64,000 nt of DNA from OCS155 cluster bacterium AG-422-J23 (GTDB taxonomy: Bacteria; Actinomycetota; Acidimicrobiia; Actinomarinales; Actinomarinaceae). Location of the stretch: contig QCMT01000002.1 in assembly GCA_003213625.1 (NCBI GenBank), positions 22,152 to 86,151 on the forward strand, read 5' to 3'. Position 1 is the first letter of the stretch, and the number at the start of each line of letters is the position of its first letter. The notes below the pieces were generated by a model, which searched no databases, was not told where the DNA came from, and saw nothing but the letters and a program-made list of their open reading frames with translations. The position numbers were made by a program, and so were the translations under genes. Of the stretch, positions 5,542 to 22,368 are shown one piece after another.

Positions 5542-5604
5542 TATTGAGATGTTAATAATAAATTATAGATAGGTTGTTTATTCAAAATTTAAACTAATAT
5601 ATAA

Positions 5605-5700
5605 CTAACGGGAGCAGTAGAGCTGAGAGGGTTAAAAACCGACCGTATGAACCTGTTAGGTAATTCTAACGAAGGGATATTCGGTACTCTTATCCCATTT
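5605..5700 (+). promoter_or_regulatory. TPP (THI-box) riboswitch
   Basis: acGGGAGC..GCTGAGAGG..ACC..GAACCTGtTaGGTAATtCTAaCGaAGGGAta matches the conserved THI element blocks. It sits directly 5' of the transporter, whose SD/start (gaggtaattGTG) follows. Confidence 0.85.
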
Positions 5701-12750: not shown

Positions 12751-12842
12751 GTAAATTAGAAAAAAGACTTTTTTGGTCATTTCTCTTTGTAACTTTCTTA
12801 CTGCATTTGTACTTAGTTGTGACGCTTGTTTTTAGTGGATAA
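12747..12842 (+). CDS. micro-protein paralog 2 (31 aa, hydrophobic)
   Basis: GTG start; VSKLEKRLFWSFLFVTFLLHLYLVVTLVFSG. The peptide pattern is conserved with paralog 1 although the DNA has diverged. Overlaps the next gene start. Confidence 0.45.
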   Translation: MSKLEKRLFWSFLFVTFLLHLYLVVTLVFSG

Positions 12843-13302
12843 GAAGTTTCAAAAATTATTTTTAATTATCTTTTTTTTATTCAATTGTACTTCTACAAAT
12901 GCTGATAATGATCTTGTAGTTGAACAAAAAGATTCTGAGGATGTTCTTATTGAGATAATGGAAAGCTATAGAAATTTCTCATTGGACCCAGATAAAGCTG
13001 TTGAAATAATCTGGAATAATGCTCACAAAGACAATAAAGAGGTTACCGGGCCAATTGGAAGATTTAAATCAATGCTTATTTCTGCTCCATACAACGCAAT
13101 AGTTGATTTAACTGATTACTCATATGAAGTAATTCAAGAAGATGGCGAGATGGTTCATTATGAAATAAAAATTTTAAATAATAAAAATGAGTATTTTGTT
13201 GTTACTTGGGTGTTTACTTATGATGAATGCGAAATTAGTGAAGGCCTGTGTTGGCAGACAATAGGAGTAAGCCCACCTATGTATTTTGATTCAGGAATTT
13301 AA
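12835..13302 (+). CDS. putative lipoprotein, unknown function
   Basis: The ORF track starts at 12826. GTG at 12835 gives VDKKFQKLFLIIFFLFNCTS (signal peptide plus lipobox LFNC). Confidence 0.6.
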   Translation: MDKKFQKLFLIIFFLFNCTSTNADNDLVVEQKDSEDVLIEIMESYRNFSLDPDKAVEIIWNNAHKDNKEVTGPIGRFKSMLISAPYNAIVDLTDYSYEVIQEDGEMVHYEIKILNNKNEYFVVTWVFTYDECEISEGLCWQTIGVSPPMYFDSGI

Positions 13303-13928
13303 TCATCACCTATCGAATCAAGAGGATTTTCTGGTTGGCAAATTTCAAATGCTTCTTGAACCTCGTCTGAAGTCCATTCAATATCTGCATCTCTAAAAGC
13401 AAAAAATCCAAATTCACCTGGTGTTGGGTCAGGAAAGTTGCTGATACCTTCATCTCTCATACATTTTGAAAATTCTAATGAAGCATCAACCAAAGCTGCC
13501 TCAACTTCTGGATCAAGATCAAATTGATCAGGAAGGGCGTTTCTCAAAATATCTTCACAGTTTGTAAATGCTTCTTCAAATTCTTCTTCGTTTTCAATAT
13601 CTAAATTATCAAATTCTGGATTGCCGTCTATATCAAATGAAGGGTCTGGAAAGTCAATGCCTTCTTCTCTCATACATTGAGCAAAATTCAGAACCCCTTC
13701 TTCAAAAGTCACTTGCTCAATAATTGTTGTAGAGGATACACTTTCTTCGAGTGAGACTACACCCTTAGTTTCTTCTTCACCAATAGTGCAGGCGGAAACC
13801 AACAAAGCAAGAAAGATTACTTTCTTACTGCTTCTGCTGGTTGGATTTTTGATGCTTTTATAGCTGGATATACACCTGAAATTGCTCCAATTAATAAGGC
13901 TAAAAAGACTGCTCCTAAAATCTGCCAT
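13299..13928 (-). CDS. double-Cys-motif lipoprotein, paralog D (start uncertain)
   Basis: Lipobox LLVSAC. Two modules: AQCMREEGIDFPDP...C and SKCMRDEGISNFPDP...C. The maximal ORF overlaps the permease by 112 nt. The real start is probably near 13850, but no canonical start codon is seen there. Confidence 0.7.
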   Translation of the reverse strand: MADFRSSLFSLINWSNFRCISSYKSIKNPTSRSSKKVIFLALLVSACTIGEEETKGVVSLEESVSSTTIIEQVTFEEGVLNFAQCMREEGIDFPDPSFDIDGNPEFDNLDIENEEEFEEAFTNCEDILRNALPDQFDLDPEVEAALVDASLEFSKCMRDEGISNFPDPTPGEFGFFAFRDADIEWTSDEVQEAFEICQPENPLDSIGDD

Positions 13929-15001
13929 ATAGGTATTGAGAATACAATATCTGTGTAGTTAGTGTAAGCCAAAGTAATGAAGGTTCCTAGGCCAACACCA
14001 ACAAGGCCTCCTATTCCTGATAAAACTATACTTTCTAATAAAAATTGATACCTTATTTCTCTACGGGTTGCACCAATTGATCTTCTCACACCTATTTCCA
14101 TTCTTCTTTCAAGAACAGACATAACCATTACGTTTGCTATTGCAACACCTCCAACAAGAAGAGCTACAGAACCTAGCCCCAGTAATAAATTAGTAAATGC
14201 TTCTTCAGCTGCTTGTTGCGCTTCAAGTGCGTCTGAGGGTCTAGTAACTTCTACTTGATCAGGATTTTCAGGGTTCATTGATGGAGCTAATACCTCAACA
14301 ACATCCTCAATAAAAGTAGGATTTGCTCTTAAATAAATTGTTGTTGGTTCCTCGTCAATATCAAAAAGAGTTTTTGCAACTCCATAACCTATAAATACTG
14401 ATCTATCTAGGTCTGGATGTATTTTAAGCTCTTCTAACACCCCTATTACCCCAAACCATTCATTATCAATGAGAATTTTTGTAGGTGTCGAGAGATTTGT
14501 AATTCCAAGTCTCTCAGCAGTAACACTTCCTAACACGGTTACGGGTATATTAGACAAACCAGGTGTAATGAACCTGCCTTCAACAAGATTACCTCCAATT
14601 ACATCCAAAAGTTCTGCGCTTGTAATTATTGTTGAAATTCCCCCACCTTCAAATTCTGATATAAAGTTACTTCTACGAACTAGTAAATCGGTCTGGGTTG
14701 TAGAGGTTACTTCTTCAACTGGTCCAATTCTTTCAACCATTCCGAGGACTCCTTTTGGTAAATCTTCTTGAGTTCCAAAAAATCCTGCTTGAGGAGAAGC
14801 TTTTACCAGATTTGTTCCAAGTGACTCAAGAGTTGATAGTAAATCAGCCCTTCCAGATGCTGATATTCCAGAAACTGCAACTATTGCAGCTATTCCAATT
14901 CCAATTCCAATAGAAGTAAGAGTAGCTCTGCCTTTTCTTGCGCGAACTCCATAAAGTGCAACAAAAAATAAATCTCTAGTTCTTAGTTTTTTTCTTTTCA
15001 T
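13817..15001 (-). CDS. ABC transporter permease, FtsX/MacB type
   Basis: 394 aa: N-terminal TM, large extracytoplasmic domain, C-terminal 3-TM FtsX-like domain. Confidence 0.85.
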   Translation of the reverse strand: MKRKKLRTRDLFFVALYGVRARKGRATLTSIGIGIGIAAIVAVSGISASGRADLLSTLESLGTNLVKASPQAGFFGTQEDLPKGVLGMVERIGPVEEVTSTTQTDLLVRRSNFISEFEGGGISTIITSAELLDVIGGNLVEGRFITPGLSNIPVTVLGSVTAERLGITNLSTPTKILIDNEWFGVIGVLEELKIHPDLDRSVFIGYGVAKTLFDIDEEPTTIYLRANPTFIEDVVEVLAPSMNPENPDQVEVTRPSDALEAQQAAEEAFTNLLLGLGSVALLVGGVAIANVMVMSVLERRMEIGVRRSIGATRREIRYQFLLESIVLSGIGGLVGVGLGTFITLAYTNYTDIVFSIPIWQILGAVFLALLIGAISGVYPAIKASKIQPAEAVRK

Positions 15002-15680
15002 TTTTCACAATTTTTCCATCAATCAATTCAATTACTTTTTTAAACATATTTGCATGTTCTTGATTGTGAGTAATCATAATTACAGTTTTTCCTTGGTCAT
15101 TAAGTTCTTTTAAGATATTTAAAATATTTATTCCTGATTCTTTATCCAAATTTCCAGTTGGCTCATCTGCTAAAACAAATGCTGGGTCTTGTACTAGCGC
15201 TCTAGCAATTGCAACTCTTTGTTGCTGACCACCGGAAAGTTCTTTGGGAAGGTGACTTAACCTATCACCTAGCCCTACTTGTTCTAAAACGTCTCCGGCT
15301 TTTTCTAACCTTTCTGACCTTGAAATCCCTTGATATAGTAACCCCTCCGCAACATTCTCTTGTGCGGTCAATCCAGGCAGAAGAAAAAAGCTTTGAAAAA
15401 TGAATCCTATTTTTTCACCTCTAAATTTTGAGAGTTCATTATCTGTTAAGTCAGATATATCTTTGCCTTCTATTTCAATTGAACCGTCTGTAACACTATC
15501 CAGTAAACCAATCATATTTAATAAAGTTGATTTACCACTTCCAGATTGTCCAACAATTGCAACTAAATCTCCTTCTTTAACATTTAAAGAAACTCCATCT
15601 AGTGCTTTTACAGGGGGTGGTCCTTCATAAACTTTTGAAATATCATTGATTGAAATTACAGTTTTTGTATCGGTTTTCAT
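14976..15680 (-). CDS. ABC transporter ATP-binding protein (MacB/LolD-like)
   Basis: Walker A GQSGSGKST, signature LSGGQQQR, Walker B FVLADEPTGNLD. Confidence 0.9.
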   Translation of the reverse strand: MKTDTKTVISINDISKVYEGPPPVKALDGVSLNVKEGDLVAIVGQSGSGKSTLLNMIGLLDSVTDGSIEIEGKDISDLTDNELSKFRGEKIGFIFQSFFLLPGLTAQENVAEGLLYQGISRSERLEKAGDVLEQVGLGDRLSHLPKELSGGQQQRVAIARALVQDPAFVLADEPTGNLDKESGINILNILKELNDQGKTVIMITHNQEHANMFKKVIELIDGKIVKNEKKKTKN

Positions 15681-17263
15681 CGTGGTACGACTACAAGTTG
15701 ACCTTTAGTAATATTTCCCTTGATTTCTACAAACCCATCAGTAAAGACTCCGATTTCAACAGCTACATAGATAGTGTCAACTCCTGACTCACCCTCAAAA
15801 ACTCCTCCTTCAGCTTCACCTTCATAAATTTCTAAGGCATAACCTCCCTCAGCTAAAGCAATTAGTGCATTTACTGGTACATAAAGCACATTCTCGGATA
15901 TTTCAGTTGTAACAAATACTTTTACAGGTGCTTGATCATAAGCTTCAATTTCTTCTGGATTTAGTACTTCAAGAATCACCTCAATAAAATCTCCAGTTTG
16001 AGTTTGAGTAACAACTTGGTCTATAAAGGTAATCACCGTTGGTACTCTTTCATCTGTAGGAAGTTCTATCTCAACACTATCTCCAATTGAAACTGTCTCT
16101 TGATCTGATGCGTCAACTTGGAAAACAACCTCAATTCCAACTGAAGAAATATTATAAAGTTGTGAGTTTAGAACTACAGCAGATCCAACCTTGTTTATAT
16201 AAGAACCAACAATTATTGCTGTTTCTGATGCATAGGCGTTTGTTGGACTAAATGTTTCTGACTTTGAAGCTAATCTAAGTTCTTCTAGTTCTTCTTTTGC
16301 TTTTGCTAATTCAGCCTCCTGATCAACTCCTTCGTTGTAATCTTTTAAAACATCATCATAAGCTTTTTGGGCTGTCTCAATTGCAAGTGCCTCTGTTGCG
16401 TCTATGCCTGACTCTTTTCCTTTTTCTAGTGCTTTAATTCTTTTTTGTTCTTCTATTGTTTGTTCTAAGTCTTCAATTGCAGAATCTAAAGTTCCATCAG
16501 CTTTTTTCTCTTTTGTTTTTGGGTTTGTTTCATCTCTATAAAGTGTCAAAGTCTCTTCAGCGTCTTTAATTGCTGTATCTGCAGCTTTCCAAGCTGCGCT
16601 CTCTTCTGTAGCATCTTCTTTTGCATCGTCTAGTTTCTTTTTTTTATCATTTACTTCAGCAACTGTTGTCCCACCTGAGTCAATGGTTTCTTCAATATTC
16701 TTCACTTCTGTTTCTTTCAAATTGATAGCAACCTGCTCAGATGGAGTAACTTCAGATTTTGTTTCTATTTTGTAGTCAAGATAAAGCTTGTTAAGCATCT
16801 GTGAAGTAATTTCATCAAAAGTGTCATCTGGAGCAAATCCATCAGCTGCATATCCTAAATAAACTAGAGCTTTTTCAAGCTGTAATACGTCTGGTCCTGG
16901 ATCAGAGTTAAGATCTAATGTTCTATAAAAAGGAACTGATCCTTCAACAAGGATGACTGGTTTGTTATCAACAGCAAAGAGTATCTCTCCAAATTTTACA
17001 ATAGTTCCTTCATCTGGAATAAAAGTTACAACACCAGCCATAGGACTATTAAGTATTTTGCTGTCAGTTTGTCTTAATGTCCCGTTATATTCTTCTTTCT
17101 TTTCAAGATCACCTTGCTTTACAGATGTAGTTGTCAGCTGTAGTGTTTTGTTTATGGATGAAGATTCAGTATTTTGGGTTCCAAAATAATAGGCTACAGA
17201 ACCAACAAGAATTAAAACTACCAAGACATAAAAATTTCTGTTTTTAAATATATTTAACTTCAT
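15677..17263 (-). CDS. HlyD-family periplasmic adaptor with peptidoglycan-binding-like domain
   Basis: N-terminal TM; PDVLQLEKALVYLGY...FDEITSQML resembles PG_binding_1; long charged coiled-coil hairpin; C-terminal beta-barrel-like region. Confidence 0.75.
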   Translation of the reverse strand: MKLNIFKNRNFYVLVVLILVGSVAYYFGTQNTESSSINKTLQLTTTSVKQGDLEKKEEYNGTLRQTDSKILNSPMAGVVTFIPDEGTIVKFGEILFAVDNKPVILVEGSVPFYRTLDLNSDPGPDVLQLEKALVYLGYAADGFAPDDTFDEITSQMLNKLYLDYKIETKSEVTPSEQVAINLKETEVKNIEETIDSGGTTVAEVNDKKKKLDDAKEDATEESAAWKAADTAIKDAEETLTLYRDETNPKTKEKKADGTLDSAIEDLEQTIEEQKRIKALEKGKESGIDATEALAIETAQKAYDDVLKDYNEGVDQEAELAKAKEELEELRLASKSETFSPTNAYASETAIIVGSYINKVGSAVVLNSQLYNISSVGIEVVFQVDASDQETVSIGDSVEIELPTDERVPTVITFIDQVVTQTQTGDFIEVILEVLNPEEIEAYDQAPVKVFVTTEISENVLYVPVNALIALAEGGYALEIYEGEAEGGVFEGESGVDTIYVAVEIGVFTDGFVEIKGNITKGQLVVVPR

Positions 17264-17333
17264 ATGTGTATTTTTCTACTTAAAACATTGTATTGTATTT
17301 AACGGTATTAAGACAAAGTTTTTATTGTAAGTT

Positions 17334-17930
17334 TTAATCATCCCACTCTTCCTTCAGTTCTTCAGGTAACTTTTCCTCACAACCTTGCCAGGTTTGAACT
17401 AAAGGATCATCTTCTCTAAGTTCCCAATTTTCGTCTATATATGCATCAAGATTTACATCTCTATTGAAGTAATTAGGGTCTGGTACTTTTTCATATCCTT
17501 CTTCTCTGAAACAATTTGCTATAAATAAAGCTCTATCTAGTTCTTTTGAAGTTTGGATTGGGTCTTCAAATTGTGCCTCATCAGCAACTCCCCATAAGTT
17601 GTATTTGAGTGCACAATCTTCAATAGACTTCCAGAGTTCTTCTGCTTCTTGTTCGGTAAGTGTCTCGAAATAAGTTGAAATTGTTGTATATAGATCTATA
17701 AAGTTTTTTGGTTCTTGAAATTTATAACCTGCTTCGTTTACGCATTGAACTAAAACAAGAGGAGCATCTTCATCTGCTATTTCCTCCTTCTCTTCGTTAA
17801 TTTCTACACCTGCTGCAATAGCCTCTTTTCCTTTGTCTGTATCGACAACAGATACCACGGCTTGTTCTTCATTTTGAAATAGCGAGCAAAAAGAAAAAAA
17901 TAATATGAATAATGCTACTTTTTTTCTCAC
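17334..17930 (-). CDS. double-Cys-motif lipoprotein, paralog A
   Basis: Lipobox FSFC; modules VQCVNEAGYKFQEP...C and ANCFREEGYEKVPDP...C. Confidence 0.8.
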   Translation of the reverse strand: MRKKVALFILFFSFCSLFQNEEQAVVSVVDTDKGKEAIAAGVEINEEKEEIADEDAPLVLVQCVNEAGYKFQEPKNFIDLYTTISTYFETLTEQEAEELWKSIEDCALKYNLWGVADEAQFEDPIQTSKELDRALFIANCFREEGYEKVPDPNYFNRDVNLDAYIDENWELREDDPLVQTWQGCEEKLPEELKEEWDD

Positions 17931-17954
17931 ATCAGAATTATAAAGTATTTTTTA

Positions 17955-18554
17955 TTACCCGCCAGGAGGAGGGTCAAGCCCTAGATCGTCAAAGCACTCA
18001 GCAGCAGCCTCTCGAATTTGATCTGCTGTATATTTTTGTGACTGTACAAGATCAATAAGTATTGGCCTTAGGGGTTCCTCAGATGATGGATCAGAAACAT
18101 CTATTCCTTTACCTCTTAGACACTGCGCAAACTCAAGTTCAGTATCAAGTCTATCAGCAACATCAGCAGGATTTTCAAAATCATTGTTGCTTTCAAGTGG
18201 AATAGAGTTCTCCTCCGCACACAATTGTATATTGTCAAACAACTCCTGCCTCTGTTTTTCATTGAAACTAATAAATATTGGTGTTAAAACTGTTCTTAAG
18301 CCCTCATCATTTTTTGGATCAGCTACGTCATAACCTTTTTCCCTTAAACATCCTGCAAGTATTAGCTGTGCTTCCTCTTCTGTTAGATCTTCAATTTCAG
18401 GGCTGTCCTGGACAGTTGTTACTGTTGTAATAGTTGTTTGTATTGTTAAGTCCTCTGAAGAAACGACTCCTTTTTGCTCATTCGAAGCTGAACAAGCCTG
18501 TGTTAATAAACAAATTAATAGTATAAGGAACTTATTTTTTGTTTGTTTTTTCAT
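17955..18554 (-). CDS. double-Cys-motif lipoprotein, paralog B
   Basis: Start moved to MKKQTKNKFLILLICLLTQAC; modules AGCLREKGYDVADP...C and AQCLRGKGIDVSDP...C. Confidence 0.8.
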   Translation of the reverse strand: MKKQTKNKFLILLICLLTQACSASNEQKGVVSSEDLTIQTTITTVTTVQDSPEIEDLTEEEAQLILAGCLREKGYDVADPKNDEGLRTVLTPIFISFNEKQRQELFDNIQLCAEENSIPLESNNDFENPADVADRLDTELEFAQCLRGKGIDVSDPSSEEPLRPILIDLVQSQKYTADQIREAAAECFDDLGLDPPPGG

Positions 18555-19035
18555 CAAGCTCACATTCGTCTAATAAAGTAATTATTTCATCTTTTGATTG
18601 AACTAAGTTGCTTAGGTCAATTTTAGGTTGATCTTGTGTTGGATCGGGTACATCAAGACCTTTTTCTCTCAGACATCTCGCCAAAGAAATATTTTCATCA
18701 TACAAACTTGCCAGTTCTTCTGGGTTTAAAGTGCTTCGTTCTGTCCATAGGCTGTATTTATCAATACAAAAATCGATAGCTTCTCCAAGTTTTAATTCGT
18801 CTTCCTTACTTTGACTTAACTGGTTTATTGTTGTTTTTAAATCCTCTAAATCAAATGGAGTCATAATTTGATAGCCCTTTTCTTCATTTAAACACTTTGC
18901 TAAAACTAATGGATAATCTTCTTCGTTTATGATTTGGGTTGTTGTTGTGTTTTCAGAAATTGAAATAACCCCATTTTCTGAGGTACTACAGATATTAAAA
19001 AATAAAATAAAAAAAAGTATGCTTATTTTTTTCAT
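18532..19035 (-). CDS. double-Cys-motif lipoprotein, paralog C
   Basis: Lipobox FNIC; modules AKCLNEEKGYQIMTP...C and ARCLREKGLDVPDP...C. Confidence 0.8.
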   Translation of the reverse strand: MKKISILFFILFFNICSTSENGVISISENTTTTQIINEEDYPLVLAKCLNEEKGYQIMTPFDLEDLKTTINQLSQSKEDELKLGEAIDFCIDKYSLWTERSTLNPEELASLYDENISLARCLREKGLDVPDPTQDQPKIDLSNLVQSKDEIITLLDECELDEKTNKK

Positions 19036-19089
19036 GTTTATGTATTAATAATAATTATTTACTCATCAAGAATTTAACTTTTTTGACCT

Positions 19090-22211: not shown

Positions 22212-22345
22212 AAAAAGTACGATACTCCATTCCTTCTCTCGAGGATTGTTGTAAAAAGTAATAAAGTCGACCTGACTTATCTTTCGAATTACAGTTGCGG
22301 GACAGCGCTAGATTCTCACTAGCTTCGCTTTGTTACTTTGTTTAT
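22212..22345 (-). promoter_or_regulatory. cobalamin (B12) riboswitch
   Basis: Minus strand reads ..GAAGCtAGTGAGAATCTaGCGCTGTCCCGCAACTGTAA..AAGTCAGG.. . This is the conserved GCxGxCCCGCAACUGUAA core (plus-strand coordinates 22289-22306) and a B12-box-like AGTCAGG (22271-22277). Confidence 0.8.
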
Positions 22346-22368
22346 TTAGTGGTTAAGTGTAGCAAAAA

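Follow-up and report, generated by a model that had tools for sequence, protein, structure and literature searches.

Why should a single ABC transporter be accompanied by four lipoproteins of one family? The question is raised by a stretch of 64,000 nucleotides from the OCS155 cluster bacterium AG-422-J23 (Actinomycetota; contig QCMT01000002.1, positions 22,152 to 86,151), which is here called the window and to which all coordinates below refer. Its region 13299 to 19035 is filled by seven open reading frames (ORFs) on the minus strand, which encode, in order, three lipoproteins (LpA, LpB, and LpC), an adaptor, an ATPase and a permease of the MacB type, and a fourth lipoprotein (LpD). An earlier reading of the DNA (the original prediction) had described these genes as one operon, with each lipoprotein carrying two copies of a double-Cys module of about 50 residues, and had suggested that the lipoproteins could be cargo, partners, or substrate-capture subunits of the pump or an envelope- or peptidoglycan-associated module. 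MacB-type pumps of monoderm bacteria are poorly understood, with respect both to the role of the adaptor where there is no outer membrane and to the substrates (PMC5985334). We report that the lipoprotein is the standard first gene of a phylum-wide cassette and not a peculiarity of this genome; the copy number (three plus one) alone is special to the marine, low-GC (33%) clade of the window.

Linkage of the lipoprotein gene to pump genes

Linkage was assessed in one genome per species of the Genome Taxonomy Database (GTDB) with an alignment of high-GC members as the query. There were at least 581 confirmed matches, and the loci examined were the best 80 of these, from Thermoleophilia/Solirubrobacterales, Acidimicrobiia, Micromonosporaceae, Streptomyces, Streptosporangiales, Nocardioides, Frankia, and Nitriliruptorales. 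At all 80 of these best loci the gene directly 3' of the lipoprotein gene, and codirectional with it, encoded an adaptor, and the ATPase and FtsX permease genes came next as far as the contig extended. In three called high-GC cassettes (four loci), lipoprotein stop and adaptor start shared 4 nt. With the same neighbors beside the lipoprotein gene in every marine relative with enough flanking sequence, the association with FtsX and adaptor genes on which the original prediction depended was borne out.

Genes for an OmpR-type response regulator and a HAMP-HisKA kinase were located by targeted phmmer immediately upstream at 61 of the 67 loci with a flank of at least 3.5 kb; the orientation of this two-component system relative to the lipoprotein gene varied (divergent or codirectional). 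Single-linkage clustering of the neighbors, which merged many ORFs in one giant component, gave no further neighbor shared by more than 8 of the 80 loci. The archetype is a six-gene cassette of regulator, kinase, lipoprotein, adaptor, ATPase, and permease. For regulator and kinase, the best NCBIfam models were those of the heavy-metal systems CztRS/SilRS/CopRS (217 and 181 bits), below the cutoffs and nearly equaled by MtrAB, and a heavy-metal character of the pair is only a lead. At one locus (L169) no two-component system was present within the region retrieved, and at another (L171) it lay on the far side of the pump. The 64-kb window holds no response regulator or kinase ORF. That the lipoprotein stays with the pump where the regulator is missing speaks for a function tied to the pump, not the kinase.

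Two apparent lipoprotein-adaptor fusions (P0178 and P0238) were not used, as a lipoprotein domain ahead of the single transmembrane helix of the adaptor would leave the adaptor part on the cytoplasmic side; they are probably artifacts that arose by read-through or a frameshift at the 4-nt overlap. Complete cassettes were also seen on three contigs of metagenome-assembled genomes labeled Burkholderiales (L053), Chloroflexia (L065), and Bifidobacterium breve (L066), for which misbinning or horizontal transfer is possible.

Four paralogs of a large lipoprotein family

By sequence, LpA to LpD are true paralogs. Their mutual identity was 27 to 32% (BLASTP E values of 1e-13 to 1e-20), and a profile built from high-GC relatives alone matched exactly these four proteins in the 64-kb window (E values of 2e-41 to 5e-13), in agreement with the fourfold paralogy originally claimed. 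LpA (18532 to 19035, minus strand, as for all seven genes; 167 amino acids [aa]) was recognized by its ORF, by paralogy, and by the family profile (E = 8.6e-16); it has the lipobox FNIC with lipid Cys16, module 1 at aa 40 to 93 (DNA 18757 to 18918), and module 2 at aa 111 to 161 (DNA 18553 to 18705). LpB (17955 to 18563), recognized by ORF call and paralogy, has 202 aa from a GTG at 18563, or 199 aa from an ATG at 18554, the start called in relatives (P0121); its box is TQAC (Cys24) and its modules span aa 64 to 118 and 138 to 193. LpC (17334 to 17930; 198 aa, GTG start), identified in the same way, has the box FSFC (Cys15) and modules at aa 55 to 109 and 130 to 187, and its ortholog cluster (P0014) holds 888 member sequences. 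LpD (13299 to 13928; 209 aa from an ATG at 13928), an ORF that matched the family profile at E = 2.1e-41, has the signal peptide KKVIFLALLVSAC, lipid Cys47 (DNA 13788 to 13790; box VSAC), and modules at aa 77 to 127 and 146 to 200, and is the window copy nearest the high-GC consensus.

The eight module motifs quoted in the original prediction were all found in the translations, and within the proteins module 1 was homologous to module 2 (hhalign probability, 99.8%; E = 7.5e-30). A long acidic linker is present in each of the four lipoproteins, as had been claimed, and their net charges of -18 to -41 make them more acidic than high-GC members. Five Cys are invariant across the four paralogs, the one in the lipobox and four others, in keeping with the four nonlipid Cys per protein that had been counted. 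For the claim of a lipobox in each protein the evidence is mixed: the Cys is invariant and TQAC (LpB) and VSAC (LpD) fit a relaxed lipobox, but FNIC (LpA) and FSFC (LpC) are atypical at position -1, as judged by inspection. Orthologs of the copies with atypical boxes have canonical ones (LVAC in P0128 and LTAC in P0122), and LAACG boxes occur in relatives. The four proteins are putatively lipid anchored.

An exhaustive profile search of 1.84 billion representative proteins returned 3369 clusters at 50% identity with E values of 1e-3 or lower, 339 of which had E values of 1e-10 or lower; a second search gave 4642 clusters at 90% identity, every named one of which was called "hypothetical protein." A typical member is a high-GC actinobacterial lipoprotein of 170 to 230 aa with the box L-A-A-C-G, a flexible acidic linker of 28 to 44 residues after the lipid Cys, and two copies of A-x-C-M-R-E-H-G-[VI]-D-[MV]-P-D-P...A-x-x-A-C, in two tandem three-helix modules (rarely three). 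The Cys, R, G, and D-P positions are invariant across the family. In the top 112 high-GC members the median pI was 4.5 and the median net charge -11. The Met of the high-GC motif is present in 100%, the His in 86 to 93%, and the second Met in about 63%; Met and His vary in the wider family, and the window copies are divergent here, with L/V/F for Met and K/E/A/G for His. The lipoprotein belongs to a very large and so far unnamed family of Actinomycetota, one that clearly merits an entry of its own in Pfam or NCBIfam, and literature searches directed at the cassette brought up no account of it.

Some relatives have three modules (P0001, P0002, and P0271 to P0274); in P0001 and P0002, on short marine contigs, there is an apparent exact internal duplication of an LpD-type protein, possibly an assembly artifact.

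Domain searches and predicted fold of the module

The original prediction could not assign the module to any named domain, and the searches agreed. Pfam and NCBIfam gave no named domain for the window lipoproteins and scattered weak matches only for 45 diverse relatives, sequence-profile searches of the PDB gave no real match for the family, and Foldseek brought no assignment. Among the weak matches, CX9C appeared in 3 of the 45 members (best E value, 3e-4) and CHCH in 1 (E = 4e-3), below threshold, and the CX9C identity was rejected because the spacing of the Cys within a module is 36 to 48 residues, not 9. DUF732 matched a single member of the 45 (E = 2e-3), also below threshold. A profile of the four paralogs matched designer pentatricopeptide repeat (PPR) proteins (E = 6e-8), with repeats of at most 10.7 bits each and per-repeat E values above 4; this match was gone with the 120-sequence family profile, and a PPR relationship was rejected.

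A domain model of LpB made with AlphaFold2 (AF2) from 120 aligned sequences reached a predicted local distance difference test (pLDDT) score of 87.6 and consists of six helices arranged as two sets of three. When this two-module model was compared with the PDB by Foldseek, the best E value was 2.6 and the TM score at most 0.26; weak matches to acyl carrier protein were to a generic small helical bundle and were discarded. The TolC-binding lipoprotein YbjP (DUF3828) was not matched in Pfam, in PDB sequences, or by Foldseek, though its structures 9qgy and 9tg4 were in the structure library.

In each modeled module, Cys 1 stands at the end of helix 1, before the conserved loop, and Cys 2 lies in helix 3. 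From these modeled positions and the invariance of the Cys, one disulfide per module is plausible. The Cys positions were invariant in the 120 aligned sequences and 111 of 112 high-GC members had exactly four nonlipid Cys, so the conservation among orthologs that the original prediction called for is present.

Subunits of the pump

The ATPase (14976 to 15680; 234 aa), of the MacB/LolD/FtsE type, matched ABC_tran in Pfam (E = 2.6e-36), and its best NCBIfam match was the N-terminal (ATPase) half of MacB (242.6 bits), followed by DarD, LolD, and FtsE. Its translation contains a Walker A motif (GQSGSGKST), a signature motif (LSGGQQQR), and a Walker B motif (FVLADEP). Unlike in the fused MacB of E. 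coli, the ATPase is a separate polypeptide. The permease (13817 to 15001; 394 aa) carries MacB_PCD (PF12704; aa 27 to 229; E = 1e-16) and FtsX (PF02687; aa 277 to 388; E = 3.4e-22), both above the gathering scores, and four hydrophobic segments were recognized on inspection of the translation. Weak matches to lolCE (E = 2e-9, and 1e-13 for a high-GC homolog) were all far below the family cutoffs. On these domain assignments, with ABC_tran, MacB_PCD, and FtsX above threshold, ATPase and permease are classed as a MacB-type (type VII) ABC transporter, as originally proposed.

The description of the third subunit (15677 to 17263; 528 aa) as an HlyD adaptor with a peptidoglycan (PG)-binding motif and a long coiled coil needs to be qualified on each point. 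There was no HlyD-type Pfam match in the window adaptor, but its AF2 model (pLDDT, 68) was matched by Foldseek to MexA, AcrA, MacA, EmrA, BesA, and CusB (E values of 4e-15 to 1e-8; probability, 1.00), and a high-GC homolog matched TIGR01730 RND_mfp at E = 9e-12, below the cutoff. A periplasmic-adaptor fold is confirmed at the level of the predicted structure. In the model, a transmembrane helix (aa 9 to 29) is followed by a beta-rich region, and beta-rich C-terminal domains occupy aa 342 to 528.

Between these parts, weak Pfam similarity and alignment place a degenerate PG_binding_1-like segment at aa ~119 to 165 (DNA 16769 to 16909). The match to PF01471 (E = 0.02; 15.5 bits against a cutoff of 23) is below threshold, and the first half of the domain alone is conserved (G123, D125, V126, E130, L136, G137, D146, and T153). 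It is credible because homologs carry a clear PF01471 at the aligned position; high-GC homologs pass the threshold and are annotated "peptidoglycan-binding protein." The claimed motif was therefore found clearly in homologs but in degenerate, subthreshold form in the window copy. According to alignment and model, it is followed by a charged helical insertion of ~160 residues (aa ~174 to 334; DNA 16262 to 16744). The long coiled coil of the original prediction corresponds to this insertion, which is specific to the marine clade and missing from the ~350-aa high-GC homologs; for the geometry of a hairpin the model is of moderate confidence. The alignment of these typical ~350-aa homologs has PG_binding_1 at the usual position of the alpha-hairpin, and no hairpin.

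Long adaptors of 480 to 540 aa (P0387 to P0398) were considered as lipoprotein fusions and rejected as such, their extra length being duplicated PG-binding units (lipoyl plus PG binding). The loci of these adaptors carry one or two lipoprotein genes, with no clear correlation.

Gene order in the window and in marine relatives

All seven ORFs were present on the minus strand in the order and at the coordinates originally described, and the observation that they are tightly packed was confirmed: the overlaps between adjacent genes measure 4 to 32 nt and the gaps 24 and 70 nt (the overlap of LpD with the permease gene is treated below). A consensus scan found no convincing terminator between the seven genes and a single promoter-like site, in the 70-nt gap 5' of the adaptor gene, and no Rfam element lies within 13299 to 19035. 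From this layout, transcription of the seven genes as one unit is plausible.

Close relatives of LpD were collected from 80 metagenome loci, mostly 64 to 100% identical to LpD, with four outliers at 30 to 49%. The order LpA-LpB-LpC-adaptor-ATPase-permease-LpD is kept in them, some loci having one or two upstream copies, and all marine relatives with enough flanking sequence have the permease gene directly upstream of LpD and LpA to LpC upstream of the adaptor gene. The assembly GCA_902592825.1 is syntenic with the window, and its locus is near dnaN-gyrB-gyrA.

Translational start of LpD

No ATG, GTG, or TTG was found next to the LpD signal peptide. In some marine relatives the junction reads AAAATGA, with an ATG that overlaps the TGA stop of the permease; most, including the window, have AAAGTAA, AAAATAA, or AAAGTAG, with GTA or ATA at the start position, overlapping the stop. 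At 27 of 28 junctions of the GTA/ATA type, the LpD frame is open over the last 46 permease codons and the ATG is kept, these 27 being 24 distinct sequences (46 of 138 sites variable) that are phylogenetically related, so that the counts are not independent trials. The exception (L144) has ATA at the start position and a frame closed at -5. Lineages with the ATG at the junction mostly have stops at -36, -13, or -2 in the upstream frame, and resampling of synonymous permease codons put the chance of such an open frame at ~5%. These patterns indicate that LpD probably starts at the ATG at 13928, in which case its gene shares 112 nt with that of the permease and its signal peptide is 47 residues long.

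Two other routes were considered. A -1 ribosomal slip at GAAAG|TAA, fusing the permease to LpD, is unlikely because the overlapping frame stays open for 46 codons upstream of the slip site. Reinitiation at the GTA that overlaps the stop would use a codon two positions off ATG, and we know of no case of GTA as an efficient bacterial start codon; in L144, reinitiation at ATA is possible.

The junction also contains a 10-bp inverted repeat (13806 to 13829, minus strand; AGTAAGAAAG-TAAT-CTTTCTTGCT), which covers the permease stop together with the opening codons of the LpD signal peptide; a T-rich run comes next. The repeat may be a mere by-product of KK (AAGAAA) and FL (TTTCTT) codons; alternatively, it could affect coupling or termination.

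Role of the lipoproteins

The reading that we favor, at what we judge to be an even chance from the sequence evidence, is that LpA to LpD represent, in four copies, one conserved but unnamed subunit that works outside the cytoplasm as part of an actinobacterial MacB-type (type VII ABC) machine. The original interpretation as a pump partner or substrate-capture subunit is supported by our results; the choice among partner, capture subunit, and cargo is one that we infer. In the mechanism envisaged, the tethered, disulfide-stabilized, acidic modules would act at the outer face of the membrane and extend to the adaptor ring or to the MacB periplasmic domain. There they would take up a ligand from the surface of the membrane or the zone of the wall and deliver it to the pump, or they might instead gate or stabilize the assembly. 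ATP hydrolysis would drive the periplasmic domain of MacB (mechanotransmission), and the ligand would leave by way of the peptidoglycan-anchored adaptor or alongside it. The strong negative charge of the modules would fit a cationic ligand, such as a peptide or metal, and the two-component system next to the cassette suggests that in high-GC species the machine has an inducible role, in detoxification or against envelope stress. The up to four old paralogs (~30% identity) may broaden specificity or fill several positions in the complex. Accessory proteins already described for MacB-type pumps (YknW, AS-48E, and YbjP; see below) set a precedent. A fuller version, in which the four parts (lipoprotein, peptidoglycan-anchored adaptor, ATPase, and permease) would make up a distinct phylum-wide class of MacB systems, with the lipoprotein as an obligatory disulfide-stapled capture or gating subunit, four ancient paralogs giving one pump several specificities at a regulator-less locus, and LpD beginning at an ATG that lies 112 nt within the permease gene, is put forward tentatively and we regard it as somewhat doubtful.

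Several points weigh against a pump subunit. Cargo, or an independent envelope protein under shared regulation, would be just as likely to be encoded beside the pump, and the conserved loop may serve structure alone. Any single-ligand model is weakened by the failure of the window paralogs to keep the high-GC Met and His, and the number of lipoprotein genes does not follow the domain duplications of the adaptor. The disulfides, finally, are predicted solely from Cys invariance and helix positions.

Were the lipoproteins instead the substrates, a MacB-type transporter would extract them from the membrane, as LolCDE does, and release or place them in the cell wall. The permease is of the MacB/LolC/FtsX superfamily with its weak lolCE matches, each cassette encodes a lipoprotein of its own, and the long disordered linker after the lipid Cys resembles the segment that LolCDE-type extractors grip. 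We nevertheless consider cargo unlikely: the lolCE scores are far below the cutoffs, Lol systems have neither encoded substrates nor periplasmic adaptors whereas every cassette here has an adaptor, no LolA/LolB-like carrier is conserved nearby among neighbors that never exceed 8 of the 80 loci, and the 4 nt that the gene shares with the adaptor gene in the called high-GC cassettes suggest production matched to that of the pump subunits and not a bulk cargo. Likewise improbable is a lipoprotein that mainly modulates the adjacent histidine kinase (compare LpqB/MtrB and CseA/CseC), with the pump as the regulated output. The adjacency of regulator and kinase at 61 of 67 loci would be accounted for, and the ~125 residues between the N-terminal hydrophobic segments of the kinase, as seen by inspection, might form an extracytoplasmic loop that binds a partner. 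Yet the clade of the window has kept and multiplied the lipoprotein with no two-component system at the locus, L169 and L171 lack it in the region retrieved or have it beyond the pump, and it is the lipoprotein gene that is fixed beside the adaptor gene while the orientation of the two-component genes varies.

A more specific form of capture, in which metal bound by the modules would be delivered to the adaptor, on the model of CusF in CusCFBA and with control by a CusRS/CopRS-like system, is quite unlikely in our judgment. The CztRS/SilRS/CopRS matches of regulator and kinase, the conserved Met and His of the high-GC motif, and the strong acidity of the modules are consistent with it; against it stand the below-cutoff scores and the nearly as good fit of MtrAB, the replacement of Met and His in the window paralogs and their variability in the wider family, and the fact that we know of no metal export by a MacB-type pump. 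Highly improbable, in turn, is a structural lipoprotein of the wall or membrane that merely shares the operon. Such a protein need have no known functional domain and no structural neighbor, and none was detected, but a fixed order at 80 of 80 loci, in classes otherwise without common neighbors, would be hard to explain without functional coupling.

Relation to known systems

Spr0693-0695 of Streptococcus pneumoniae, YknWXYZ of Bacillus subtilis, and AS-48EFGH of Enterococcus faecalis are Gram-positive MacAB-like pumps, with YknW and AS-48E as accessory proteins (PMC5985334), and the adaptor YknX binds peptidoglycan (PMC5768738; PMC5985334). They share with the present cassette a MacB-type permease, a separate ATPase, a membrane-anchored adaptor, a monoderm host, and the capacity for an extra accessory protein in the operon. 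Their accessory protein is a polytopic membrane protein, however, whereas here it is a lipoprotein with helical disulfide-type modules; typical homologs of the present cassette have PG_binding_1 in the hairpin position of the adaptor, and the system is restricted to Actinomycetota and usually comes with a two-component system.

In E. coli, the lipoprotein YbjP (DUF3828) binds TolC in MacAB-TolC and AcrABZ-TolC (PMC13082787; PDB 9qgy and 9tg4). It, too, is a small lipoprotein recognized belatedly as a component of tripartite pumps, including MacAB, but it has no homology to the present family, sits on an outer membrane duct that is missing in monoderm Actinomycetota, and is not encoded with the pump. 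Protection against peptide antibiotics is provided by the ligand-binding lipoprotein LanI together with LanFEG and LanRK, and by BceRS-BceAB. These systems resemble the cassette in combining a two-component system with an ABC transporter acting at the outer face of the membrane (and, for LanI, a lipoprotein); no relation in sequence or fold is known, LanFEG is not of the MacB type, and neither system has an adaptor. BceB is of the FtsX/MacB type (PMC5985334). The Cus system (CusF/CusCBA/CusRS) is alike in having a small extracytoplasmic accessory protein in the pump operon that feeds the adaptor, with a divergent OmpR-type two-component system adjacent, but CusF is a beta-barrel and works in diderms, with an RND pump, and the clade of the window has not conserved the residues that might bind metal. 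LolCDE shares the transporter superfamily and the involvement of lipoproteins; it differs in lacking an adaptor and in having substrates encoded outside its operon, and the match scores here are far below the equivalog cutoffs.

The pump is thus of a known kind, a MacB-type adaptor-dependent transporter, and what is new is the conserved unnamed lipoprotein component, present in four copies in this clade: a conserved fourth gene for an actinobacterial branch of MacB, with thousands of clusters, no domain model, and a fixed order. The cassette offers structural biologists and Streptomyces geneticists a defined target and, through the adjacency of its genes, thousands of natural sequence pairs for coevolution analysis. 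For marine microbiology, it represents 5.7 kb held in one gene order by the sampled marine relatives.

Neighboring features in the window

A convergent ORF of 158 aa (12826 to 13302, plus strand) overlaps the LpD stop by 4 nt. It has a lipoprotein-like signal of its own (IIFFLFNCTS) and is kept at this place in most marine relatives; it has no Pfam match and is outside the double-Cys family. On the other side of the locus, an adenosylcobalamin (AdoCbl) riboswitch (22221 to 22353, minus strand) lies upstream of a Peripla_BP_2 gene, and tightly 3' of the latter are the genes for a DUF2090 protein and a phosphofructokinase (PFK), which end 54 nt before LpA on the same strand. In GCA_902592825.1 and several metagenome contigs, a gene for a 143-aa 4HBT thioesterase (L001, 9536 to 9967) stands between PFK and LpA; it is missing in the window (19036 to 19089). 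A thiamine pyrophosphate (TPP) riboswitch is located at 5598 to 5694 (plus strand).

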